From: Turneriella sp.
Lineage (GTDB): Bacteria > Spirochaetota > Leptospiria > Turneriellales > Turneriellaceae
DNA: 64,000 bases
NCBI GenBank assembly: GCA_965279515.1
Contig: CBDIID010000003.1
Coordinates: forward strand, 2,208,001 to 2,272,000
Direction: 5' to 3'
Part shown: one piece after another, positions 8,093 to 59,239 of the stretch
How positions within the stretch are numbered: the stretch's first letter is position 1
Layout: every line of letters starts with the position of its first letter
Program-made: the position numbers and the translations under genes
Notes under the pieces: generated by a model
The model's database searches: none
What the model was told of the DNA's origin: nothing
Seen by the model: the letters and a program-made list of their open reading frames with translations, nothing else

Positions 8093-9778
8093 GTGATTAT
8101 CCTCAAGGAAATCGTTCAGAGCGCGGCCGGTAAGATTTATCATTTCTGCCGACTGCGCTCCGACGGCCTGGAGCTCGACGCCCTCAATATCTCACTCGAT
8201 GGTCAGGGGGCAATCGTATCGATTGAAATATTACATAACATTGAGGGAGATTGTGCCTTCTCTGATTCCGGCGAACTGGTCCATTGTACTGCATGGGAAT
8301 CAGAAGCCGAGGCCCAGCAGGCATCCGACTGGTCGCGTCATTATCCGCTGCGCGTCGGCATCGCAAAGGCCGGCCGGGCCGAAGCGTTGCGGATTTTTCA
8401 CAATTTGAGATCGGTCATCTACGATAATTATCTGAAACACCTGCTGGGGATATTCCCCAGTGGCAAAACGCGATTAATCTTCGATGAATCTCTGTACACC
8501 GTTTACATACCAGAGCTAGCACAACCCCAGCCAGCTGCGGATGTACCGGAATCAGAAAGTGATGTGCGCAGCTTCTTTAACAGGCATAGGCGCGTGCTCA
8601 GGATATGCGGGATCAGCATGTTGGTACTTTGTGGCGGTCTCGTCGCATTTCTGTTAAGAAAACCCAAGTTCCCCCCAAGAACCGAAGAGATGGCGCGCAT
8701 GGGCAAAACAGAGCTACTGCCAGCGCTGAAATTCCTCGATCGGGATTTCTCCGAAATACTGCAGCAGTACGGCCGCGAACACGGGCCGGGGCTCCCGGCC
8801 TATGGTGAAAAAGCTGCCGACGTCGAATTCAAGTCACCAGACCAATTTCTGGATGACTTGTATCCCCTGGATAAAGAGATACAAATCCGGATATTCCATG
8901 ATCAAGTTTTCAAAAATGTAAAATTTTTTTCCCGGGAAAAGGCGGGAATTTTTCGTCGTTTGTTCGATGAAAATCTGATCCGCACCATCTCGATGACGCC
9001 AGACGGCATTATCCCTTTTGCATTCGACTATCTCAAAAACCAGCTCGATAAGAATTCACTGCTCAATTATACCCTCTACCTGATTACCCATGAACAGAAC
9101 TCCGCGTTGGCGATTGAGGCAATGCTGATTTTTTTCCGGATAACGGAAATTCAAAAGCATACCGTTAGCTTTATCTTTTATGAGCGAGAGATCCGTGAAA
9201 CATGTATTAACCGGGACTTTGAAAGATTAAAACATCCGAATGAAGCCATAATACTCTGCGAAACACTTGAAAAGCATAATGCATGGAAGATGATGGACAA
9301 GGAAATTTTAATGGGAAAATTCCATACAATGCAGGAGAGCATACTCAAGCACCTAAGTGCCAGCGCCGGGCAAAGTACCCGGCTTGCAGACATTAAATTC
9401 GAATTAGCCCTGGTGCGCTTCGAGGCCGCACAGACTCCTGCAGATATGGCATCTGCGATTGCACTCTTTTATGAGATTCCCGTACCGGCGGAACCGGGCG
9501 GCTTCGCGTACAGGGAATCCCATCAACAACTTCTCAAGCTGTTTGCCCAGAAGCAGCCTGAATTGCGCTCTCTTCGGAATAGGAAGAAAGAAGAGGGAGA
9601 TCTCAGCAAACTGACAGCTAAGGCCGATGCCTTACGTTCATCGTTAAACCGGAGCGCGAAAATTCCGGCTACTCTAAAGGATCAGGTAAGCCAGACAATG
9701 CGGAAATGGCACGCCAACGTTGCCGAAAGAAATATCAAACGGGCACGGAAGTTCGCGGAAAAAACCGTAAATAAATAG
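8093..9778 (+). CDS. Hypothetical protein with one internal TM segment
   Basis: 561-aa ORF; TM near residues 170-188; appears more AT-rich than its neighbours. Confidence 0.65.
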   Translation: MIILKEIVQSAAGKIYHFCRLRSDGLELDALNISLDGQGAIVSIEILHNIEGDCAFSDSGELVHCTAWESEAEAQQASDWSRHYPLRVGIAKAGRAEALRIFHNLRSVIYDNYLKHLLGIFPSGKTRLIFDESLYTVYIPELAQPQPAADVPESESDVRSFFNRHRRVLRICGISMLVLCGGLVAFLLRKPKFPPRTEEMARMGKTELLPALKFLDRDFSEILQQYGREHGPGLPAYGEKAADVEFKSPDQFLDDLYPLDKEIQIRIFHDQVFKNVKFFSREKAGIFRRLFDENLIRTISMTPDGIIPFAFDYLKNQLDKNSLLNYTLYLITHEQNSALAIEAMLIFFRITEIQKHTVSFIFYEREIRETCINRDFERLKHPNEAIILCETLEKHNAWKMMDKEILMGKFHTMQESILKHLSASAGQSTRLADIKFELALVRFEAAQTPADMASAIALFYEIPVPAEPGGFAYRESHQQLLKLFAQKQPELRSLRNRKKEEGDLSKLTAKADALRSSLNRSAKIPATLKDQVSQTMRKWHANVAERNIKRARKFAEKTVNK

Positions 9779-9858: not shown

Positions 9859-10608
9859 ATGCCCCGCAATGCCCAAAAACCATCCGCTAAGCAACAGGTA
9901 ACCAAACCAGTTGTCTTTCACGCGCATAACCTCGCCAAAACCTATACCATGGGCGAAGTCAAAGTGCATGCGCTCGCCGGTATTGAACTCGAGCTCGTGG
10001 AGGGTGAGTTCATTGTACTCCTCGGCGCTTCAGGTTCCGGTAAATCGACACTGCTCAATATTCTCGGCGGGCTCGATACGCCGACCGACGGCAAGGTTCT
10101 CTTCCGCAACAAGGATATTTCAGCCATGTCGGAAAATGAACTAACCTTTTTCCGCCGCGACCATATCGGCTTTGTCTTCCAGTTCTATAACCTGATGCCC
10201 AGCCTTACCGCAGAAGAGAACATCGCGCTGGTGACCGAACTTGCGAAAGACCCCATGACGCCGGCTGAAGCCATGCGCCTCGTCGGCCTCGAAGAGCGCC
10301 TGCAGCATTTTCCCGCGCAGCTCTCCGGGGGTGAACAACAGCGTGTGGCGATTGCACGCGCGATCGCGAAAAAACCCGACGTGCTGCTCTGCGATGAACC
10401 CACGGGAGCCCTCGATTTCAAAACCGGCCGTATCGTGCTCGAGGCCATCTCTGCAGTAAACCTGAAGCTCGGCACAACAACGGTCGTCATCACGCATAAT
10501 GCCGCCATCGCCGGCATGGCCGACCGCGTCATCGAAATGCGCGACGGCCGCATTGTCAGTGATCGTAAAAATAAAAAACGCCAGGCAATCGCGGAGCTCA
10601 GCTGGTGA
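9859..10608 (+). CDS. ABC transporter ATP-binding protein (LolD/MacB type)
   Basis: [40 protein letters not shown]. Confidence 0.95.
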
Positions 10609-44996: not shown

Positions 44997-46520
44997 ATGA
45001 AGTTAAAAAGCATTGCCTTATTGGCAAGTTTAACAGTCTTCGCTGCTGCAGTTTCTGCCGCGCCGAAGAAAGCCCCGGCAAAGCCAGTGGCCGCTAAGGT
45101 AGACCCAAAAGTGGCTAAAGCTGAAGCAGAGGCAAAAGCTAAGGCGGAAGCAGAAGCAAAAGCCAAGGCTGAAGCGGCGAAGGCGCCCGAAGGCCCGCCG
45201 GACAAAGCGTCATGGTTCAATGTTGGTGGTAATCTCGTACAAGGTTACACTTATAACCCGCAACATCCGTCAGACGGATATAACGGTACATTGACCTGGA
45301 CAGACCGCGCGAATGAGTATCAGCTCAATCAGGCGTGGATGTACTTCGAGATTCCCACAGACACAAGCAAAAAAGATTTTGACTTTGGTCTGCGCGTGGA
45401 TACTATGTTCGGTTCCAGCTACCGTTGGGCAACCAGCGCCGGTTTTGAAGACAAACTGTTCAAAACAAATACCGGTAACGGCTCGAGCGTAGCAAGCAAC
45501 CAATATGGCTTGGCAATTCCCCAAGCATACGTTGATATGGCTTACAAGTCGCTGAAACTGCGCGTGGGTCACATCATATCGCCTGTAGGTTTTTTTACGG
45601 TGGATACAACACAGAACGTGTTTAATACCATCCCCTACACGTATGCTTACGGTGAGCCTTTCACGCACTGGGGTGCATTTCTGTATTGGACTGCCAGTGA
45701 TAAGCTGACCCTTATGGGTGGTGCAACACGCGGTGGAGATAACCTCGATGGCGCAGGTGTTGGCTCGAAAGTTCCCGGCTTCCTTGGAACGCTGACGTAC
45801 GTCTTCGACAACAAAGCAACCTTTGACTGGGTTGTTCACGTAAGTAAGGAATACAACTACCACAGCTCAACCACGAGCACAAACCCGGCTCAGAGTTATG
45901 CTTTGGGTTCGTACAACCCTGATGACAGTCTCTACAGCTGGAGGTACTTTCAGACGCTCGTCTATAAGCGCCCACTTACCTCAACGCTGCAGCTGGTTGT
46001 TCAGTCTGACTTCGGAATTCAAAAAGTGGCAGACATGAAGTCCGCTCTGGATGCAACAAATCCGCAGAAAGACAAAGACGTTACAGCAATGTGGTACGGT
46101 GCGAACGTGTACCTGATACACCAGACACTGCAAACGCTGCAACTCGCGGTTAACTTTGAATGGTTCCGTGACAATAACGGTGTTCGCGTAGGTAACGTGC
46201 TCCCCACATACTCTGCGGCAACAACAGGTGTGCGTGGTATGGGTTCGAACTATCTCGCCGGCGGCCGTCTGAATTACGTGGGTAACTTCTTCCAGGTTAC
46301 ATTCGGTCCAAAATGGCAACCACAGAAGAACTTCTTCGTTCGTCTGAATGGTCGTTATGACTACTTCGACGGAACAGCGTTGAATGCAACGACTGCAGCA
46401 ACACTCGCTGCTTCCACGGATGCTGCGACACGAGCTACAGATCCTGCCGCATTACCGTTTGGGAACGGAGCGAAAAAAGATCAGTTCGTAATTGGCTTAG
46501 ACGCAGCTCTCCTCTTCTAA
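44997..46520 (+). CDS. Outer-membrane beta-barrel porin (BBP2/DUF1597-like)
   Basis: AAGGAG SD; signal peptide; DRANEYQLNQ, IPQAYV, GEPFTHWG, EWFRD; C-terminal F. Confidence 0.8.
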   Translation: MKLKSIALLASLTVFAAAVSAAPKKAPAKPVAAKVDPKVAKAEAEAKAKAEAEAKAKAEAAKAPEGPPDKASWFNVGGNLVQGYTYNPQHPSDGYNGTLTWTDRANEYQLNQAWMYFEIPTDTSKKDFDFGLRVDTMFGSSYRWATSAGFEDKLFKTNTGNGSSVASNQYGLAIPQAYVDMAYKSLKLRVGHIISPVGFFTVDTTQNVFNTIPYTYAYGEPFTHWGAFLYWTASDKLTLMGGATRGGDNLDGAGVGSKVPGFLGTLTYVFDNKATFDWVVHVSKEYNYHSSTTSTNPAQSYALGSYNPDDSLYSWRYFQTLVYKRPLTSTLQLVVQSDFGIQKVADMKSALDATNPQKDKDVTAMWYGANVYLIHQTLQTLQLAVNFEWFRDNNGVRVGNVLPTYSAATTGVRGMGSNYLAGGRLNYVGNFFQVTFGPKWQPQKNFFVRLNGRYDYFDGTALNATTAATLAASTDAATRATDPAALPFGNGAKKDQFVIGLDAALLF

Positions 46521-46539: not shown

Positions 46540-46569
46540 AAAAAGGCGGCCGCTGGCCGCCTTTTTTTT
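46540..46569. terminator. Bidirectional intrinsic terminator
   Basis: AAAAAGGCGGCC-gct-GGCCGCCTTTTTTTT between convergent genes. Confidence 0.88.
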
Positions 46570-46571
46570 GC

Positions 46572-49500
46572 CTAGCGCTTTCGCTTTTTTTTCTTCCACT
46601 TCGACTTACCTTCGTTGGCGCCTTCATAGACCAGGCGCGGCGCAGTCTCGGCTGTCGCCTCGTGATCCCTGATATCGAAGTAATCCGTTTTGCCGGCATG
46701 CGAGCCCGCAGTGGGCGCCGTGGGATTCTCGTCTTTTACGATCAAAAGGTAGAGGCATGGTAAGACAGTCAGAATCAGCACCAATGCCGCAAACAGACCG
46801 CCGACGACGACCGTGGCAAGCGGTCGCTGCACGTCTGAACCCACCCCCGTTGCCAGCGTCGCGGGGATTAATCCCAGAAGCGCCAGCGTCATCGTCATGA
46901 GGCGGGGCCTCAGCTGCACAATCGCCGCGTGTTCGACGGCTTCCATGACGCTCATGTTCAGGTTTGACCTCAGGATCAGGTTTGTTCGCGAAACGAAGAG
47001 GACTCCCCCCATCGTCGCAATACCGAACAACGAGATAAATCCCACCCCGGCCGAGATGTTGAAGTAATAATCGCGGACGACGAGCGCCATGAGGCCGCCG
47101 ACCAGCGACAGCGGAATGCAGGCCAGCGCCACCATCACGTAACGCAGGCGTTTGTAGAGGCCATACAGCAGCGCAAAGATGATAAAGATCGTCACCGGAA
47201 TCGCTACCGCCAACTGCTTACCGACGCGCGCGAGGTTCTCATAGTTGCCGCCGTATTCGAGGCTGTAGTCCTCGGGCAATTTTACCTGCGCGGCAACCTT
47301 GTCCTGTAACTCTTTCACGAAACCACCCTGGTCGCGGCCGCGGATATTCGTGCGCACTGTGATGGCGCGCTTACCTTCTTGCCTGAAAATCATCGTTGGC
47401 CCATCGATGATGGAAATATCGGCAAGCTGCGCCAGCGGCACGCGTTCTCCGGTGGGAGCGAAAACCGGCAGGGCCTGCAGCGCCTTGACGCTCTTGCGGT
47501 ATTCATAGGGATACCGCACAACGATGCCGAAGCGCCATGGCCCTTCATACAGCGTCGATATCCGCTGGGCACCGATACCCCGCTCTATGACGCTCTGGAT
47601 CGTGCTGATATTGATGCCGTAGCGTCCGGCAACTTCGCGCTTGATCTTGATCGTCAGTTGCGGCGAGTCGGCTTCCTGTTCGAGACCATATTCCGAAGCC
47701 CCCGGAATCTGACTGAGGATATCGAGGATTTCATTGGCTTTTTGCCGGGCGATCTTGAGATCGGGCCCATAGACAAACACCGCCAATTCAGCAATGGTAC
47801 CGTTAATCGCCTCCTGCATGTTATCCATAATCGGCTGCGAAAAGCTCCAGCGCACCGAGGGAAACTCGTGTTCCATATCCTTGATAATGCGGATGAGCAG
47901 ATCCTGTTTTGTTATTTTCTCTTCCCACTTCGCGTAATCGTGCAGCGACATCGTGATTTCGAGGCGATTGGGCGGCAGCGGGTCGGTACCCGAATCGTTG
48001 CGTCCGAGCTGCGCCACGGAGTTGGCGATCATGGTATTCTTCGCCAGGACTTCCTGAATCTTCGGCAACTGCTTGTTTGCGGACTGCAAAGAAACACCTA
48101 CCGGGAAATATCCCCTAAGTGTCAGGTTGCCTTCGTCGAGCTCGGGCAAAAATTCAGACCCGATCTTCAGCGTACCGAATATCGTCAGGGCGAGAACGGC
48201 GCCGAATGCGATGGCGACGACCTTTTTGTAGCGGGCCAGCAAATAACGTACCACACGATCGTACTGTTTTTCTATCCAGCCGTATACCGGGTTGTGCCAT
48301 TCGATTTTCTCCTTGCTGTCGGATTCCCAGTATTTCCGGTAAATCATCGCCATTAACACGGGCACTACTGTCATGGCAAAAACGAGCGATCCGAGAATCG
48401 CGTAAGAAATCGTAAACGCCATCGGTTTAAAGAGCCGTCCCTCGATACGCTCAAACGAGAAGATGGGAATATAGGCGAGGATAATAATGAGCATCGAAAA
48501 GACGATCTCCATCCCCACTTCCTTGGTGCCGTTCAGCGTATACTGGCCGATATTCTGCGTGCGGTTGTCTTTTCGGTCACGGTAAAGCCGCGTGATGTTC
48601 TCGGCCATAACGACGACGCCGTCGACGATGATACCGAAGTCAATCGCGCCCAGCGATAAGAGGTTCGCCGAAAGCCCCGTCATCCGCATGAGAATAAAAG
48701 CGCAACAGAGCGAGAACGGTATCGTCAACACCACCACCATCGCGGTGCGCACCGAACCGATGAAGAACACCAGAATCAAGGTCACAATCGTCACACCCTC
48801 TATCAGGGTTTTGCTGATCGTATTCAAGGTATACTTGACGAGATCGCCCCGGTCGACCATGACCTTGACCTGCATGCCATCCGGCATGTATTTCTCATTG
48901 ATTTCTTTGGTCTTCGCGCGCAGTTTTTCTCCGGTAGTATTGGGGTCACACCAGCGCCGCATGGCCGTGTTCCCCTGGACTCCCGAGGGGACGCTGAACA
49001 GCGCTTCGCCGGCGGATTTATCCTGCGTGAAATAGTTCACAACCCCTTGCGGTATCAGCGGCGAAACTTCGACCGAGGCCAGGTCTTTAACGAAGACCGG
49101 TACGCCGCGTTCGGTTTTCACAAAAATATTTTCGATATCCTTGAGATTGCGGATAGCGCCCAGCGAACGGATCGCAAACCCCTGGTCGCCCTGGCGCAGA
49201 ATATTGCCGCCGCTGTTGAGATTATTATTCTGAATGGCGTTGACGACTTCTTCGAGATTGGTATTGTATTGAACCATCCGCTCCGGGGTCGTGATTACGT
49301 GGTACTGTTTTTCCAGGCCGCCGAATGTCACAACATCGGCAACGCAAGGCACCGATAGAAGTTTCGGCATGACTACCCAGTCCTGCACCGTGCGCACTTC
49401 CATCGGCGTATGGTTTTTTCTGCTCTCGACGATGTAACGGAAAATCTCGCCCGAAGGTGAACTCATCGGCGCAAGTTCCGGTTCCACTTCGGGGGGAATC

Positions 49501-49862
49501 TGCGCTTCCTTGACTTTTTCCATCAGACGTATGCGCGCGAAATAGTCGTCGGTACCTTCTTCGAAGACGAATTGGAATGTCACAAGGCCATTGATCGTCC
49601 GCGAACGCCTGACGCGCACATTGGGCGTATTATTTGTGACGCGCTCAATGGGCAGTGTCACACGCTCTTCAACCTCGACGGCGGCGCGCCCCGGAAACGC
49701 CGCAACCATACGTACCTGCGTATCGGCAATATCCGAATACGCCTCTTTCTGGATGCCGACCCACGACCAGATTCCCAGCGCTACGATGAGACCGGCGAGA
49801 CCGAGGGTCGGGAGTTTGTTCTTGAGGGCGAACTCCACCGCCCGAAAAATAATCTTATCCAT
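46572..49862 (-). CDS. CzcA/CusA-family heavy-metal efflux RND permease (copy 2)
   Basis: [54 protein letters not shown] before ATG 49862. Confidence 0.95.
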
Positions 49863-50005
49863 GATTGCTCCTTGCAACAAAGACATCTTTGTTTTATCCC
49901 TGCCTGGAGTCGGCGCGCAATGGCAGCCCGCGCAGAGCGGAGCTCAACACTCAAGACGCACCTCTCCATACCCGCGGGTTTTCCGCGGCATTAAAAATTT
50001 TTTGC

Positions 50006-50446
50006 TTAGATGGATCTTACCGGAGGAGGAATCGGATACCGGCTTGGGATATCAGATTGGGCAAAATAATGAAAATCATCGTCGGGATGGATGACACTCA
50101 GGAAAAAACCGGAAGGTTTCAGGACCGCAGAGGTGACCGTCTGCAGAAAAAAATCGCGAAAATGTTCCTGAAAACCGAATCGCAGAAGGCTGCCACGCTT
50201 ATTCGGATGCGCGAGTTTTTGGGCGACTTCACCCGCAGTTTCCCGCACGCCGTGCTCCGATGCCAGCCCTCCGCCTGCAGCATGCAGTTCGGGTGCCTTC
50301 TGGATATGACCGTAGCCGAAAGTTCCCGGCGGCTGCACGCCTCCGGCGACGGCAAATCCGGAGACGGCATAGAATAAAAGGAAGAGCACCGCGGGGATTT
50401 TTCTCCGCGGGGAAAATTCAGAAACTGCTTTCGAATCGGATAACAA
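50006..50446 (-). CDS. Putative arrest-type leader protein ending in SRYPIPPP (paralog of 56800-57231)
   Basis: In-frame TTG just after the czcA1 stop, preceded by AAGAGG; N-terminal hydrophobic segment; ELHAA-x8-GVRET; C-terminal SRYPIPPPVRSI. Confidence 0.7.
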   Translation of the reverse strand: MLSDSKAVSEFSPRRKIPAVLFLLFYAVSGFAVAGGVQPPGTFGYGHIQKAPELHAAGGGLASEHGVRETAGEVAQKLAHPNKRGSLLRFGFQEHFRDFFLQTVTSAVLKPSGFFLSVIHPDDDFHYFAQSDIPSRYPIPPPVRSI

Positions 50447-50447
50447 G

Positions 50448-53400
50448 CTACCTCTTCTTCTTACGTTTCTTCCACTTCGACTTACCTTCGTTGGCGCCCT
50501 CGTAGACCAGCCGCGGCGGTGCCGCCGATTCCGCTGCATCTTTCGCCGCAAAATAGTCGATCGGCGATCCACCACCCGAAGACCCGGTCGATGGCGTCTT
50601 CTTTTCATCTCTGACGACGAGCAGGTAGAGGCAGGGCAGCACGGTAAGCACCAAGAGCATTGCCGAAGCGAGACCACCGACGATGACCGTTGCCAGCGGG
50701 CGCTGCACGTCTGAACCCACACCGTGGGCCAGCGTCGCGGGGATTAACCCCAGAAGCGCCAGGAGAATCGTCATCAGCATCGGCCGCAGCTGCACCTGCG
50801 CGGCTTTTTCGACCGCTTCAAACGTGCTCATGGTCAGGTTATTCGCGAGAATATGGTTCGTGCGCGAGACGAAGAGAACCCCCGACATCGTCGCAATACC
50901 GAACAGCGAGATAAACCCCACACCCGATGACACATTGAAATAATAATCGCGCATCACGAGGGCCATCATACCACCCACAAGCGAGAGAGGTATACAGGCC
51001 AAAGCAACCAGGACGAAACGGATATTTTTGAACAGCCCATAGAGCAGGCCGAAAATGATGAGGATCGTCGCCGGTATCGCAATCGCCAGCTGCTTACCCA
51101 CACGCGCAAGGTTTTCATAGTTACCACCATACTGCAGCGTATAGCCCTCGGGCATTTTTATCTGCGCATCGACCTTTTTTTGCAGCTCGGCGACAAAGGA
51201 GCCCTGGTCACGGCCGCGAATATTCGCACGTACTGTAATAGCGCGCTTGCCCTCTTGCCTGAAGATCATCGTCGGTCCATCGACAATGTCAATGTCGGCC
51301 AGCTGCGCCAGCGGAATACGTTCGCCAAGCGGTGAGAAAACCGGCAATGACTTCAACGCTTTGATGCTTTTTCTGTATTCATATGGAAAACGCACCACGA
51401 TACCGAAACGCCACGGGCCTTCGTACAGGGTGGATATCCTCTGCGCACCAATACCTTTCTCGATGAGGCTTTGAATGGTACTGACGTTGATGGCATAACG
51501 CGCGGCGACCTCGCGCTTGATCTTAATCGTCAGCTGCGGCGAATCGGCTTCCTGCTCGAGGCCGAATTCCGAGGCACCCTGGATCTTACGCATGATTTCC
51601 AGAATCTCGCTCGCTTTTTGCCGCGCGATCTTCAGGTCGGGACCGTAGACGAATACGGCCATATCGGCAATCGTACCCATGATCGCTTCGGACATGTTGT
51701 CCATAATCGGCTGCGAGAAACTCCAGCGGATCGACGGGAACTCGTGTTCGACATCTTTGATGATGCGGATCAACAAATCGTCCTTAGTAATTTTTTCATC
51801 CCATTTGCTATAGTCATGGAGTGCCATCGTGATTTCGAGACGGTTGGGCGGCAGCGGGTCAGTGCCCGAATCGTTGCGGCCGAGCTGCGCCACGGCATTC
51901 GCAATCATGGTGTTCTTTGCCAGTACCTCCTGGATTTTCGGCAACATCTTATTTGCAGACTGCAACGAAACACCAACCGGGAAATATCCCCTGAGCGTCA
52001 GGTTGCCCTCGTCGAGTTCGGGTAAAAATTCAGAACCGATGCGCATCCCGCCGAAAGTAATTAAGGCCAGCACGACACCAAAGGAAATATAGACGACCTT
52101 TTTATAACGTGCGAGCAAAAAACGCATGAGCTTGTCATAACGTACTTCGACCCAGGCATAGACCGGGTTATGCCATTCGATTTTTTCGTTCGAATCGGAT
52201 TCCCAGTATTTTTTGTAGATCATCGACATGAGGACAGGCATGATCGTCATCGCAAAGAGCAGAGACCCCAGAATGGCGTATGAAATCGTGAACGCCATCG
52301 GCTTGAACAGTCGGCCCTCGACGCGTTGGAATGAAAAGATCGGGATATAGGCCAGAATGATGATGAGAATCGAGAACACAATCTCCATCCCCACTTCTTT
52401 ACTGCTATTGAGCGTGTACTGGTTGATGTTCTGGCTGCGGCTAGCGCTTTTATCGCGGTAGCTGCGCATGATGTTCTCGGCCATGATCACGACACCATCG
52501 ACAATGATACCGAAATCGATAGCCCCCAGCGACAACAGGTTCGCCGACAAGCCGGTCATGCGCATGAGAATAAAGGCAAAGAGCAGCGAAAACGGAATCG
52601 TCAATACCACGACCATCGCCGTGCGCACTGAGCCGATAAAAAAGATCAGAATCAGGGTTACGACCGTCACGCCTTCGATCAACGTTGTACCGATCGTGCG
52701 CAGTGTATAGTTGACGAGGTCGGCCCTGTCGATCATGGGCTTCACCTGCATGCCGTCGGGCATATACTGTTCGTTAATTTCTTTCGTTTTAGCGCGCAGG
52801 TTGTCCCCGGTCGTATTGGGGTCGCACCAGCGCCGCATCGCGGTGTTTCCCTGGACGCCCGATGGAACCTTAAAGAGCGCCTCGCCCGCTGATTTATCCT
52901 GCGTAAAATAATTGATGATACCCTGTGGAATCAGCGGCGAAACTTCGACCGAGGCGAGATCCTTAACGAAAACCGGCACGCCCTTATCGACCTTGACGAC
53001 AATATTCTCAATATCTTTGATCGTGCGGATAGCCCCCAGTGAGCGAATAGCAAACCCCTGGTCCCCCTGGCGCAGAATGTTACCGCCGGTGTTCAGGTTA
53101 TTTTTCTGGATGGCTTCGACAACTTCATCGAGATTCGTGTTATACTGAACGAGCTTTTCCGGCGTCGTGATCGCATGGTACTGTTTCGCAACGCCGCCAA
53201 AGGTTACGACGTCGGCAACGCAGGGAACGCTGAGCAGTTTCGGCATCACAATCCAGTCCTGCACGGTACGCACTTCCATCGGCGTGTGATTTTTTTTCGA
53301 TTCGACTATATAGCGGAAAATTTCGCCTGAAGGTGAACTCATGGGCGCAAGTTCGGGCACGACCTCTGGCGGAATCTCCGCCTCTTTCACCTTTTCCATC

Positions 53401-53738
53401 AGCCTGATGCGGGCAAAATAGTCGTCTGTACCTTCCTCAAAGACAAACTGAAAAGTGACGAGGCCGTTGATCGTGCGCGAACGGCGTACGCGCACCTGTG
53501 GTGTATTGTTCGTCACGCGCTCGATGGGCAATGTGACGCGCTCTTCGACTTCAACGGCGGCCCGCCCGGGAAAAGCGGCAACGAGACGCACCTGCGTATC
53601 GGCGATGTCCGAGTAGGCTTCTTTCTGAATGCCGACCCACGACCAGATACCGAGCGCGATAATGAGACCAGCCAGTCCCAGGGTCGGCAGTTTGTTTTTT
53701 AGGGCGAACTCGACCGCCCGGAAAATTATTTTATCCAT
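50448..53738 (-). CDS. CzcA/CusA-family heavy-metal efflux RND permease (copy 1)
   Basis: Same HME-RND motifs; directly downstream of the adaptor gene. Confidence 0.95.
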
Positions 53739-53741
53739 AGT

Positions 53742-54701
53742 TTAGAAACCGACGGATAAGCCCTTGAGCAGCATGACGCCTTCCGTCACGACCGTATCGC
53801 CCTTCTTCAGCCCTTGCAGAATCTCGACGTATTCGTCGTTGGAGTTTCCAATCACGACGGTTTTTTTCCGGAACGTATCTTTCGCTTCTTCGACAAAAAC
53901 ATAGTTTTGACTTTCGACGGTAAAAATCGAAGTGAAGGGTAGCACCATAGGTGCTTTTTGGTCGTCGATGAATTCGACCTTGGCGAACATGCCGGGTTTG
54001 AACTTGCCATTTTCATTCGGGAAAATCACACGCACTTTTACAGTCCGCGTCGCCGGGTCGACGTTGTCACCCACGGCCTGCACCTTTCCTTTCATTTTCT
54101 TATCGGGGAAAGAATTGAAAATAATGTTCACGGCTTTACCGGCGCGGCAGGTGTCTAACCTGCTTTCGCTGATGTCAGCAATCATCCAGACGATGTTCGA
54201 GCCATAGTTGTTGAGGTCAGAGGGATTCACCCCTGCGGCGCGCAGCTTACCTTCCGATTCGGCGACCTGGGCCCCCGAGTTGCCGGCTTCGGTCTCGGCC
54301 TCGATGATGTCACGCTCGGTGGCAACCTGCATCGAGTACATGTCTTTCACGCGTTTGAGATTTTTCGAAGCACGCGAAGAGGCGTTGCGCGCCTGGCGGT
54401 ACGTGGCATACGCCGTGTTGAGATCGGCAGATTCGAAGAGCACGATTTTGCCCCCACTCGAAACCGAACGGCCGACGGTTGCAACCACGCGCGCCGGCGC
54501 CTGAATCTGTATGAATTCCTTGCCGCTGCCGAAGGGCCGCGTTTCAATGCGGGCACGCCCTTGGGCGCCTTCCGGGAAAAAGATCACTTCTCCCTTCTCG
54601 CGGATTTCAGGCGCCACATAGACCGTCGGCGGCTTTGCTTTCGGCCCGCAGGCAACAAGAACCAGACTCAAAAATACAGAATAAGACAGTATCGTCTTCA
54701 T
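53742..54701 (-). CDS. CzcB-like periplasmic adaptor (lipoprotein)
   Basis: AAGGAG SD; lipobox LVAC; VDPATRTVKVR, KPGMFAKV. Confidence 0.9.
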   Translation of the reverse strand: MKTILSYSVFLSLVLVACGPKAKPPTVYVAPEIREKGEVIFFPEGAQGRARIETRPFGSGKEFIQIQAPARVVATVGRSVSSGGKIVLFESADLNTAYATYRQARNASSRASKNLKRVKDMYSMQVATERDIIEAETEAGNSGAQVAESEGKLRAAGVNPSDLNNYGSNIVWMIADISESRLDTCRAGKAVNIIFNSFPDKKMKGKVQAVGDNVDPATRTVKVRVIFPNENGKFKPGMFAKVEFIDDQKAPMVLPFTSIFTVESQNYVFVEEAKDTFRKKTVVIGNSNDEYVEILQGLKKGDTVVTEGVMLLKGLSVGF

Positions 54702-54748
54702 TTTATTCTCCTTAATAGAAGTATGTTTTTTCATGATTATTCCTTTGT

Positions 54749-55312
54749 TTAACGTGGAAAAGTGAACAGGTAGCCGGCCTGAAAAATCAAGACCGGGTTC
54801 TTCATTTCATCCGACATGGCACGCCCCACCCCGCCCTGGAAGAAAAATCCGTCCATGAACAGTTCATAGGCGCCACCGATGTAACCGCTGGCCTGCGAGA
54901 CGCCGGTCTTGTCGTCAGGCAATGCCGGATCGAGCGCAAACAGCGGGTTGCGCTTCATATAGCCCCCGACAAAAGACAGGCTGTGGCGGATGCGATCGCC
55001 GTTAAACAGCGAGAAACCGACATCACCCTGAAAGCCCATAAAATTGCTGCCGTAAAACATGCCCGATCCCCTGAGGATAAAGCGCCACAGATGAAGCTGC
55101 GCATGCACATTGAGCCCCGAAGGCAAGCCAACGGTCGGCCCGATGGCAAAAAACGAATTTGTCAGCAGGTTACGGTCGATGGCCTCGTCGGCGTCTTTAT
55201 ACGCTTGGGCGAATTTATCCGTCTTCGCTTCGCTGTCCTTTGCCTGGGCAAACAGCACTCCGCCTGACAAAAATGCGCAAACCAACAATATACCAGGTTT
55301 GAAAGTTCTCAT
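54749..55312 (-). CDS. Small exported beta-strand-rich protein (possible 8-stranded OM barrel)
   Basis: GAGG SD, signal peptide, C-terminal FQAGYLF; lies inside the czc operon. Confidence 0.65.
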   Translation of the reverse strand: MRTFKPGILLVCAFLSGGVLFAQAKDSEAKTDKFAQAYKDADEAIDRNLLTNSFFAIGPTVGLPSGLNVHAQLHLWRFILRGSGMFYGSNFMGFQGDVGFSLFNGDRIRHSLSFVGGYMKRNPLFALDPALPDDKTGVSQASGYIGGAYELFMDGFFFQGGVGRAMSDEMKNPVLIFQAGYLFTFPR

Positions 55313-55313
55313 A

Positions 55314-56759
55314 TTATTTCACCTCCGCGGCATTGTTGTTCGCCGGTACGGTTTGCAGGAAGATGATGTCTTTCCCGATCGAGTAGTTGATGTTCTCGAG
55401 GGCTTCGGTGCGCTGCGTTTTAAGGTCGATCAGCTGCACGATGCTGTTGCGGTAAGTCTCAAAGAAGTCTGCAAGTTCGATGACGGAGATATAACGTTTC
55501 TGGTAACTCGCCACCATCACCTGGATCAACTCGCGGAAATCCTGGACATGGCCGCCCTTGAATTCCTGGTAAATCTTGTCTTTTTCTTTCGCCTTAATCA
55601 GCGAAGCCGCGAGCTCACCTTCGAGCCTCATACGTTCGTTCATGAGCTCGCGTTTTTTTGCTGCGATCGCCTTCTTGGCCGATTCGATATTCCCCTGGTT
55701 GCGGTCGAAGAGCGGCACATTCACCTGCGCAGTGAGACCGAAGTAGTTGGGCTGATACGTGTTTGCGCGGTTAAAAACCGGCCCAAATGCCAGGTCGGGA
55801 ATCGCATTCGCCTCTTGCAGTTCGAGGTTCGCTGTCTCGTACTTGAGGTTCAGCATCGCGGTTTTGAGATCGGGCCTATGCGTCTCCGCATACTCAACGA
55901 GTTGCTTTATCTCGAGGCTGTTTGCAGCCGCATTCTCGAGCAATTTTTCGTCGACGAGCGGCACCAGTTGGTGCTCGGCAAGTTCAGGCCGGTTCATCAG
56001 CACGCGTAAATTCACTTCTTTCAGGCGCACATTCATCATGATGTTCGCGCGCTCATTGCGCAGAAAATAACTTAGCGCCTTGAGACGCAGGTACTCCGCT
56101 TTAGTGATCGCGCGGCGAGACAATGCCACTTCGGCGCCCTTCACAGTTCTGCCGAGAGCTTCGATCGTCTGGTCATAATACATGACGCTCTCGCGCATAT
56201 AATGGAGGGCGAAAAAAGTATTGCGCAGTTCAAACTTCAGCGCGCGTAAAACATTAAAGAACTCATTTTCCGTCAGCGCCTTGTTGATTTCCGCAACCTT
56301 GATCCGCTTATCGATCTTGCCGCCCATGAGAAAGAGCTGCTGTATCTGGATTACCTGGCTGCCGTTTTCGGTAGCATCGAGAAATTGCGCCGTCTTATGG
56401 CTGTAAATGCTGGTTTCGAGAAACACGCTGGGGTTTGCATAAAGCCCCGCCTGCATGACAAGCGCGCGTTTCGCCTCGATCTGAAATTTTGCCGCAAGGA
56501 GCAGCAGGTTTCTTTCGACGAATGATCGTTCGGCTTCTTCCAGCGAAAGTCTATAGACTTTCAGATCACTCGCCGCGAGCGTCGGCGAAGTGATTGGGTT
56601 CGCAACGATAGGCTCCGGTGTCTGCGACGCCGGTTTGGTCGCGGACACAGGCTCGGCGGACTTAATGAGCTCCGCCTCTTGTTTTTCCGGAATATCGCCA
56701 GCCTGCGCATACAGCGATGCAACCAAAACAAGAAAAAAAGATATAGATACTTTAAACAC
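55314..56759 (-). CDS. CzcC/TolC-family outer membrane efflux protein
   Basis: GGAGG SD; LSLEEAE, AGLYANPS, RPDLK, IPDL, VPLFDRNQGNI. Confidence 0.93.
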   Translation of the reverse strand: MFKVSISFFLVLVASLYAQAGDIPEKQEAELIKSAEPVSATKPASQTPEPIVANPITSPTLAASDLKVYRLSLEEAERSFVERNLLLLAAKFQIEAKRALVMQAGLYANPSVFLETSIYSHKTAQFLDATENGSQVIQIQQLFLMGGKIDKRIKVAEINKALTENEFFNVLRALKFELRNTFFALHYMRESVMYYDQTIEALGRTVKGAEVALSRRAITKAEYLRLKALSYFLRNERANIMMNVRLKEVNLRVLMNRPELAEHQLVPLVDEKLLENAAANSLEIKQLVEYAETHRPDLKTAMLNLKYETANLELQEANAIPDLAFGPVFNRANTYQPNYFGLTAQVNVPLFDRNQGNIESAKKAIAAKKRELMNERMRLEGELAASLIKAKEKDKIYQEFKGGHVQDFRELIQVMVASYQKRYISVIELADFFETYRNSIVQLIDLKTQRTEALENINYSIGKDIIFLQTVPANNNAAEVK

Positions 56760-56799
56760 ATTCCCTCCACGCCTGCCTGAGCCGGCGAATCTTTATCGT

Positions 56800-57231
56800 T
56801 TATGCGAGAGAGAGGGCAGGTGGAGGTATTGGGTAGCGGGAATTAAGGTGCGTATGCGCAAGTGAAATAAGATTAGCGTTCAGGCAGGCATCACCCAGAA
56901 GCAGCAGCGGTTTGTTGAGTTTCTGGGCTGCGAAGGCCATGGGAAAGAGTTCCCACAGGGAAGATCCGGATGTATTGTGACGAGGCGGAGTGAAGCGGTT
57001 GTTACCCTGTTCGATCCGTTGGATTTCTTCGGGTGAAGATTCACGGATACCCTGCGCCGGTGACGTAAAGTCACGCGCAGCATGCAACTCAAGCGTACTG
57101 ATGTGCAGCGCTGAGCTTTTCACAACTTTGGGTGACAGGTCTTGCGTTGCAATGCTGAAGCTGCAAAGCACCAGAACTGATGCGATCAGTACAGAGAAAA
57201 CGCTTCTTGGTGCCGAGACAGATACGTTCAT
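56800..57231 (-). CDS. Putative arrest-type leader protein ending in SRYPIPPP upstream of czcC
   Basis: N-terminal hydrophobic segment; ELHAA-x8-GIRES; C-terminal SRYPIPPPALSLA; alternative TTG start at 57246. Confidence 0.72.
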   Translation of the reverse strand: MNVSVSAPRSVFSVLIASVLVLCSFSIATQDLSPKVVKSSALHISTLELHAARDFTSPAQGIRESSPEEIQRIEQGNNRFTPPRHNTSGSSLWELFPMAFAAQKLNKPLLLLGDACLNANLISLAHTHLNSRYPIPPPALSLA

Positions 57232-57295
57232 AATGCTATCAACCAAATCGAATCCGTCGTTCTTGGTAGATGGCTCAACGGGTCAATGAATATGG

Positions 57296-58144: not shown

Positions 58145-59239
58145 CTATAATTTCAGGCTCGCGGCGGCGGTCACAATATGTTCCTGCGGACGAACAGCGT
58201 CGGAAAAACGGTAAATACCATCGGCGGCAAAAAAATTACGGTACTCCAGGCGGAGCACATAGGCCTCCTGCGGCTGAAAATTCAGATTCCAGGTAAATCC
58301 TCCCACCTGAAAACCATTCGCAGTGCCCGTCGCCACCATCACTTGTTTCGGATCGATAAAATATTCGAGGCGGATTGCGGTATTCCACTGCGGATTCAAA
58401 ACATAACGCGCGTACGCGGCGCCGGTGTACCATTGCCGGTACGATTCAAGGCCTGCGGTTTTTTGTACACCCACGTCGCAGGTAAGGGCAAATTGCCACG
58501 AAGCTGAAAGAGAAAACTGCAAAATTAAATTACTGTAAAACCGGTATTGCGGCGTATTGTCGTCGGGCGCGACGTTGCCGGCAAAAGAATTGTGAATAAT
58601 TTTCAATTGCGGTGAGAATTCATAGCTCACCTGCGTGCCTAAACTTTTATCGCGGTTCGTCGGCGTGATGACCTGCCAGCCGTTCAGTATGTGCAGTTGT
58701 AAAATCAGTTTTTGCGTCGCTTCGTAAGTCAGCCGCACACCCGTCGCATAATAAGGCACGTTGTCGAGATTTAAGGCACGCGAATAATTCCAGTTGGTGT
58801 GGGATATCCACGATTCATAACCGATATGGCCGAAAAAGATTCCGGCATCGAGCCAGAGCTTATCAAAAAATTTATAACCGACAAAAGCCTCCTGTAGATT
58901 TCGCGTCGAGAGCTGGTTCGAATATTTTTCCGTGTTCGTTTCGTTCTGGTAGTTTGCATTCACGGAAGTTCCGAACTGTAGCGCGAGGCGGCCACGGATG
59001 TGCTTTTCATCCACCGCCGCTTCAACATGCGCTAGATTGATATTAAATTCGCGGTCGCGGGCAATCTGCGTGAGATATTGCCGGTCACTGCTGGCTGGCC
59101 GGTAGACGCTCGATGCATAATACGTGTCGATGAAAACACCGGGCCTTACCAGGGGTTTTTCCGCCGCTTCGGTAACAGCATAAACGCCCTGTGCGGTTAG
59201 ACACAGGGCTGTCAGAACACATGTTGAAACTTTAGTCAC
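58145..59239 (-). CDS. Outer-membrane beta-barrel porin (BBP2-like)
   Basis: FNINLA, RGRLALQFG, LQEAFVG, HIGYES, NWNYSR, PYYATG, NGWQ. Confidence 0.82.
   Translation of the reverse strand: MTKVSTCVLTALCLTAQGVYAVTEAAEKPLVRPGVFIDTYYASSVYRPASSDRQYLTQIARDREFNINLAHVEAAVDEKHIRGRLALQFGTSVNANYQNETNTEKYSNQLSTRNLQEAFVGYKFFDKLWLDAGIFFGHIGYESWISHTNWNYSRALNLDNVPYYATGVRLTYEATQKLILQLHILNGWQVITPTNRDKSLGTQVSYEFSPQLKIIHNSFAGNVAPDDNTPQYRFYSNLILQFSLSASWQFALTCDVGVQKTAGLESYRQWYTGAAYARYVLNPQWNTAIRLEYFIDPKQVMVATGTANGFQVGGFTWNLNFQPQEAYVLRLEYRNFFAADGIYRFSDAVRPQEHIVTAAASLKL

Follow-up and report, generated by a model that had tools for sequence, protein, structure and literature searches.

The window considered here, a stretch of 64,000 nucleotides from the spirochaete Turneriella sp. 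(contig CBDIID010000003.1, positions 2,208,001 to 2,272,000), carries an operon for a metal-efflux pump of the CzcCBA type in which two short genes, L1 before czcC and L2 before a second czcA copy (czcA2), code for related leader proteins with a proline-rich tail. Judged from sequence comparisons, these leaders are real and conserved, and probably regulatory. L1 is likely to be a cis-acting leader coupled to export, the pause of its ribosome at an IPPP motif uncovering czcC's Shine-Dalgarno (SD) sequence. New here are a Turneriella clade of leaders ending in PIPPP, a predicted SD stem and the duplication of a leader inside its operon. This reading would extend export-coupled pause control to a whole class of spirochaetes, where the published survey found few such leaders (PMC9973294, 10.1101/2022.11.11.516240). 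As they have no cysteine sensor, the leaders ask whether this design reads other metals or non-metal signals, and the Turneriella locus is a compact place to test it: the spacer is 40 nucleotides long, the stem is defined, and one transcript bears two natural variants.

Both leaders stand on the minus strand as the sequence-only reading had placed them, as open reading frames (ORFs) of 143 and 146 amino acids. Both have a hydrophobic stretch near the N terminus, the internal pattern HI-x3/4-ELHAA-x8-G[IV]RE[ST] and an identical SRYPIPPP, five residues before the stop in L1 and four in L2; re-reading also upheld that seven of the eight codons of this octapeptide differ synonymously between the two genes. 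Over 135 amino acids the proteins share 25% identity (E 4e-9). L1 begins with an ATG, or with an alternative TTG at 57246 that would make it 148 residues long. The start of L2, whose stop-to-stop frame runs back into the first permease gene, czcA1, is presumably the TTG found one nucleotide past the czcA1 stop, with AGAGG just upstream. Forty nucleotides separate the L1 stop from czcC, and 143 the L2 stop from czcA2. In the AlphaFold model a signal-like helix is predicted with confidence, but no folded mature domain (pTM 0.22); the signal peptide is read from this hydrophobic helix (residues 8-31), which fits a cleaved and an anchored form alike. Six-frame translation of the genome (9.8 million residues) contains SRYPIPPP twice, in L1 and L2. 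Other matches to YP.PPP, candidates for a third copy, sit in short reading frames that overlap other genes or run antisense to them.

Protein searches returned a closed clade of such leaders, pooled into 20 distinct proteins (12 matches; 9 representatives). PIPPP is present in all 20, two to six residues before the stop, R[YF]PIPPP in 18, RYPIPPP in 16 and SRYPIPPP in nine. The full octapeptide is thus too narrow to be the family motif that it had been taken for, the core of the class being [LI]PPP, and the likening of the C terminus to RAPP/RGPP has to be abandoned. Upstream, LH is kept in 17 of the 20 and the G-x-RE segment in 19, at a distance of 73-75 residues from PPP in 17 of those 19; R-Y-P-I, LH, G-x-RE, Q71, R79 and R84 are conserved as amino acids. 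Among 20 genomes of the family, searched with a leader profile built partly from the five positive genomes, five have a czcC orthologue, and the same five have a leader directly upstream of it. The profile search added two weak matches (loci L176 and L177). Scans of metagenome contigs gave zero leader loci and one contig with czcC, which ends before the upstream DNA; among RNA data sets none was listed as a holder.

The sequence-only reading had proposed a search of related genomes for ORFs ending in [SR]YP.PPP before czcC/czcA or TonB-dependent genes, and the PPP tail proves conserved well beyond the clade. czcC matches were found at 128 places in 105 of 190 genomes of the Leptospirae, and 111 of these places were examined. 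A PPP-tailed ORF lies upstream of czcC in 105 of the 111 (102 by script, three on re-inspection). One of the six misses has only 153 nucleotides of contig upstream; the other five are divergent czcC paralogues. In the 102 loci, PPP is preceded by Leu (76), Ile (25) or Arg (1) and followed one to five residues later by the stop, while all four proline codons are used at each PPP position; 100 of the 101 leaders with a start call have a hydrophobic N-terminal window. Because a signal-bearing, [LI]PPP-ending ORF so regularly precedes czcC, we take [LI]PPP as the core of the motif. Within Leptospiraceae, a czcC orthologue is present in 100 of the 114 genomes searched and nearly always bears a leader. 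Homology between the leader bodies of Turneriella and Leptospiraceae was not detected, their profiles aligning over the tail alone (probability 4.8%, 8 columns), so that the two groups are best described as positional counterparts rather than proven homologues. In one Leptospiraceae genus two tandem leaders, ending in NLPPP/NIPPP, precede czcC (L162:14933-15908, L163:1461-2433), and in some Leptospiraceae the czc operon follows a gene read from sequence as secA.

At the L1-type loci the tail has a second property. Folding predicts 15 pairs between the L1 tail and positions -19 to -1 of the czcC start, and a tail paired with the czcC ribosome-binding site (RBS) is predicted in all five Turneriella loci of this type. 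When a ribosome is masked in with the second proline of PPP as its position, the czcC RBS becomes cheaper to open by 7.8-10.1 kcal/mol in all five, whereas in the same genome one of 167 gene pairs with a strong SD reaches 7.8; placed eight codons earlier, the ribosome does not open the site. Control of the downstream gene, as had been proposed for both leaders, is partly supported, by a predicted SD-sequestering stem at the L1-type loci, while the czcA2 start site shows no predicted gating by L2.

We propose the following sequence of events. L1 would be translated and, by its signal peptide, fed into the Sec translocon, and the ribosome, going by the known behaviour of PPP, would pause at R-Y-P-I-P-P-P for a time tuned by elongation factor EF-P and by the pull of secretion. 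The exported LH / G-x-RES..EE.Q segment, 73-75 residues upstream, probably also tunes the pause. The paused ribosome would cover codons otherwise predicted to pair with the czcC SD, allowing czcC-orf187-czcB-czcA1 to be translated. L2, presumably duplicated together with czcA, would be translationally coupled to czcA1. EF-P is encoded in the genome, as is Rho. What supports this scheme directly is anatomy, conservation, spacing and the predicted stem; translation, export, pause and signal are inferred.

Several observations weigh against it. The predicted stem is opened just as well by a ribosome that is terminating. When the tails of the five loci are resampled synonymously, the observed effect is equalled in 26, 2, 9, 2 and 9 of 40 trials, which indicates that much of the tail-SD pairing follows from CCN codons facing a strong SD, and the register of the helix varies between loci. 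Gating of czcA2 by L2 is absent (-0.3 kcal/mol; 3.4 in a longer folding window, not tied to PPP). Only four of 79 main-group Leptospiraceae loci reach at least 5 kcal/mol, a count that leaves out 11 loci without a start call, and three of seven paralogue loci do so. The motif is a soft one: in E. coli assays IPPP stalls moderately and LPPP weakly, EF-P rescues both, and an upstream Arg strengthens the stall (PMC4176338). From this a tunable pause appears likelier than a hard arrest. Finally, CxxC or CxxxC occurs in none of the 20 clade leaders; His43, the first of the histidines to which a role in metal sensing had been assigned, is found in one of 16 aligned rows; and His126, found in 14 of them, is missing from L2 and would sit in the exit tunnel. 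The proposal that these histidines sense a metal is accordingly weak.

The first of these observations would be accounted for by constitutive translational coupling, in which the SD stem melts when the leader is translated up to its stop, the pause at PPP is unregulated, and the leader sets the level of the pump while sensing nothing. The weak-to-moderate, EF-P-rescuable pauses at IPPP/LPPP and the absence of a cysteine metal site agree with it as well. It leaves unexplained a signal peptide retained in 100 of 101 leaders, the fixed spacing of 73-75 residues and the conservation of LH, G-x-RE, Q71, R79 and R84; moreover, PPP is invariant in Leptospiraceae loci that have no SD stem, so that peptide motif and SD pairing come apart. 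We consider this explanation improbable. A selected element made of RNA only, be it an anti-SD or a pyrimidine tract with the peptide motif as its by-product, would be favoured by the fact that proline codons are natural anti-SD sequences, and by the depletion of G in the tails. Set against it are the seven of eight codons that differ between L1 and L2 under an identical peptide, the occurrence of all four proline codons, and the conservation of R-Y-P-I and upstream residues as amino acids, so that we give it hardly any credence.

In Leptospiraceae, the last 13 leader codons contain 175 G against 366 expected from synonymous usage (97 loci), and 93 against 168 after dereplication, with 39 of 43 below expectation; in the leader body the figures are 960 and 1019. 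The expectation comes from a pooled codon background and related genomes are not independent, which weakens the contrast. Together with tails that pair with the spacer in only six of 35 loci, and with long spacers, a G content of about half the expected would suit transcriptional attenuation of the kind described for CruR: a paused ribosome would shield a C-rich, G-poor Rho-loading tract, and on its release Rho would terminate ahead of the pump genes. Leptospiraceae and L2 may use this mode, and Rho is encoded; in the L1-type Turneriella loci, spacers are mostly short (36-54 nucleotides in four of five) and the tail is predicted to be paired with the SD. As an account of these leaders, we think its prospects slim. 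It is also quite doubtful that the leader acts in trans, as a secreted periplasmic modulator of the pump resembling CzcI, its tail being a structural or interaction motif. The signal peptide, the czcI-like position and the conserved internal residues would fit, and CzcI itself has been described as a putative metal-sensing regulator upstream of czcCBA. This does not sit well with a protein that has no confident fold (pTM 0.22), that matches neither CzcI nor DUF2946, whose tail keeps a constant distance to the stop, and whose bodies in Turneriella and Leptospiraceae are undetectably related though the tail is kept.

Returning to the export-coupled pause of L1, which signal would it read? There is roughly an even chance, if the model holds, that a divalent metal in the periplasm, for instance zinc, is the signal, which we favour because the pump resembles ZneA. 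Both czcA copies pass the TIGR00914 cut-off of 701, with 835 bits each; ZneA is the best match for czcA among solved structures in the PDB, and in the alignment its acidic residues E136, D602, E610 and D654 are kept, D658 being replaced by E. These five ZneA residues we take to be its zinc site. For metal sensing by the leader itself, support is weak: the identity of the pump, one LH and acidic residues. A close Cys pair is found in one of the 101 Leptospirae leaders with a start call, and the mature part of 20 of them is free of His. Secretion force, proton-motive force or pH, within the same model, has a smaller but appreciable chance. A wider form of this idea, which we find unlikely, has cysteine-free arrest leaders reading an envelope signal other than a metal, be it the pull of secretion, the proton-motive force, the pH of the periplasm or inorganic carbon, with the duplicated leader making a two-step relay: L1 would open czcCBA1, translation of czcA1 would couple into L2, and only a second pause would license the diverged czcA2. 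It draws support from Cys-poor, acidic, PP-tailed leaders before DabA and SulP-carbonic anhydrase genes, and from LPPP leaders before non-metal RND operons or a regulator.

How do the leaders compare with known systems? Pfam gave zero matches for L1, L2 and 18 relatives, and NCBIfam zero for L1 and L2. The profile comparison with DUF2946 and CzcI, suggested earlier, returned nothing, neither DUF2946 (PF11162, found in none of the 20 family genomes) nor the CzcI model (NF045615) matching the leaders. SecM is a small secretory leader with a C-terminal arrest motif, and its profile (PF06558) is absent from the genome. A language-model search for look-alikes returned mostly unnamed clusters, with a SecM cluster weakly at rank 29 of 30 and, for a Leptospiraceae leader, a weak DUF2946/CzcI cluster. 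No published description of these leaders in Turneriella or Leptospira was found in a search that mostly left out the subscription literature.

CutF-like proteins are defined as signal-bearing proteins of less than 150 amino acids that have PP among their last 15 residues and a same-strand gene within 1000 nucleotides; genes of the OEP/CzcC type are their commonest neighbours, and all 29 clusters carry Cys/His motifs (PMC9973294). In CutF of Rhodobacter capsulatus the ribosome stalls at PPP, and an SD stem is opened (PMC9973294; 10.1101/2025.02.05.636593). L1 and L2 are alike in length, in PP within the last 15 residues, in a same-strand gene 40 or 143 nucleotides away and in PPP. Their signal-like helix may be a Sec-type signal, and the stem predicted for L1, which in part follows from proline codons, may be a counterpart of that of CutF. 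They differ by having no CxxxC or His-rich site and no DUF2946 match. From CutF itself L1 differs in that its anti-SD is made of the PPP codons and the tail themselves, and in that the leader is duplicated inside the operon. The likeness is one of published criteria, not of cluster sequences, and the published protein list may hold spirochaete entries. Of the claim that this is a distinct family of arrest leaders, what stands is the sequence level, where DUF2946, CzcI, Pfam and NCBIfam are unmatched; the architecture is that of the published CutF-like class.

In Planctomycetota, uA_LPPP lies upstream of secA and arrests at its motif, strongly in B. subtilis and weakly in E. coli in vivo (PMC10987492). 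A signal sequence and a C-terminal LPPP-type motif are common to it and to L1 and L2, which stand before czcC/czcA instead of secA and in another phylum, and are likened to it by architecture and not by homology. CruR of Bordetella pertussis, a DUF2946 protein with RAPP and CxxC, controls an importer via Rho, copper relieving the stall (PMC9426467). It too is a leader with a proline-rich tail at a metal-transport operon, and its long C-rich spacer recalls those of Leptospiraceae and L2; L1 and L2 have no RAPP, CxxC or DUF2946, and theirs is an efflux operon. RAPP/RGPP leaders are small and secretory and precede diverse genes, many of them metal-related (PMC12992588). With these and SecM, L1 and L2 share small size, a putative secretion signal and a C-terminal motif, but not RAPP, RGPP or RAGP, and their IPPP is expected to be sensitive to EF-P where RAPP is not. 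CzcI of Cupriavidus metallidurans, a putative metal-sensing regulator, is likewise a small gene directly before czcCBA; it is described as having no C-terminal proline motif, and its model, as all those of NCBIfam, fails to match the proline-tailed L1 and L2. The leaders would thus seem to work like CutF or uA_LPPP and yet match none of DUF2946, CzcI, RAPP and the metal motifs.

The two permease genes czcA1 and czcA2 are sisters (support 98/97), the czcA2 branch being threefold longer, and this makes it plausible that the leader was duplicated together with czcA, as had been suggested; the leader tree is unresolved, with L2 a long branch without placement, so that L1 and L2 are candidate sisters. 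At unchanged residues only 46-59% of the codons are identical between czcA1 and czcA2. Three other Turneriella loci reach beyond czcA, and none of them has a second copy. Since its signal, ELHAA, G-x-RE and the octapeptide are kept despite that long branch, L2 appears to remain under selection for all four. Leptospiraceae have independent leader-czcA and leader-czcB-czcA duplicates (L179-L185) and tandem leaders, which suggests that leader and permease tend to move together. Public-run contigs bridge the czcA1-L2-czcA2 junctions without differences; they come from one study only, perhaps from the source sample itself. Past the L2 stop by 44 nucleotides, an SD-like GGAGAG and a GTG in the czcA2 frame, which one stop codon interrupts (49862-49961, minus strand), are possibly the relic of a lost czcC start. 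Two features near L2 were set aside: a 16-17 nucleotide match between the L1 and L2 spacers is weak (59 of 2000 shuffles reach it), and two CCGCGG hairpins are non-specific, with 22 such on the main contig. In one related operon (L031/L036) czcC is 87% identical to that of the window, czcB 57% and czcA 70%, the others having 73-79% and 80-87%, which suggests a mosaic operon and exchange of modules.

All genes of the operon lie on the minus strand, in the order L1, czcC, orf187, czcB, czcA1, L2, czcA2 and a terminator-like hairpin.

Table. Features of the leader-bearing czc operon (positions in the window).
Feature	Position	Strand	Basis or remark
Leader L1, 143 aa	56800..57231	-	signal-like helix 8-31, LH 49-50, G-x-RES..EE.Q 61-74, tail SRYPIPPP-ALSLA
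L1 SRYPIPPP codons; with adjacent tail, predicted anti-SD strand	56818..56841	-	folding
czcC SD region and GTG start, predicted sequestered by L1 tail	56757..56778	-	folding
czcC-like outer membrane factor (OEP)	55314..56759	-	PF02321
orf187, 187-aa exported protein, family-less	54749..55312	-	no Pfam/NCBIfam match
czcB-like periplasmic adaptor	53742..54734	-	profile matches
czcA1, CusA/CzcA-family RND permease	50448..53738	-	TIGR00914, 835 bits (cut-off 701)
Leader L2, 146 aa, diverged L1 paralogue, tail SRYPIPPP-VRSI	50006..50446	-	ORF reading, pairwise comparison
L2 SRYPIPPP codons	50021..50044	-	read from sequence
Structured L2-czcA2 spacer, 143 nt	49863..50005	-	folding; no predicted gating of czcA2 start site by L2 tail
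czcA2, paralogue and sister of czcA1 (84% identical), on a branch three times as long	46572..49862	-	tree, alignment
Terminator-like hairpin and U-run directly after czcA2, -20 kcal/mol	46540..46561	-	folding

The hairpin after czcA2 is not listed by a consensus scan; no such hairpin lies between czcA1 and L2. A promoter scan found no site upstream of L1, and no two-component system is conserved beside the operon in the loci read. orf187 is kept inside related czc operons, where its position varies. Genes for BBP2 (OmpL-like) porins flank the operon on both sides (44997-46520, plus strand; 58145-59239, minus strand), and at several related loci a BBP2 gene also adjoins czcA.

Proline-tailed leaders are found before other genes too. 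A His-rich one ending in RAPP directly precedes another CzcA-family gene (L160:8114-8638, minus strand; G000 C3 near 1598109). Three Cys-rich, PPP-tailed leaders in one cluster (L157:4749-5156 and 8178-8642, minus strand, and 9956-10324, plus strand; G000 C3 1976-1982 kb) precede MbnP/cytochrome c peroxidase genes, cytochrome c membrane genes and a TonB-dependent receptor gene; unmatched in Pfam, they are typical CutF-like candidates. LPPP/IPPP leaders also stand before non-metal RND operons, a regulator of the LIC13292 family and a family-less gene of 299 amino acids (L187, L190, L183:6583-7059, L186/L188/L189/L194/L196-L198). An acidic, signal-bearing RAPP/RGPP leader lies before dabA, for an inorganic-carbon transporter (L159:5470-5856, minus strand; G000 C3 near 1218465); such leaders occur at 11 of 15 dabA loci of the family (L201-L215), and no close Cys motif is conserved in them. 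Another acidic leader precedes a SulP-carbonic anhydrase fusion (L158:1388-1765, plus strand; G000 C3 near 817886; L216-L245), where the filter retains 18 of 30 loci, including one that is probably spurious. Its tail is TPPP in Turneriella and ENPPP in Leptospiraceae, and for G000 folding predicts a pairing between tail and SD (5.6 kcal/mol).

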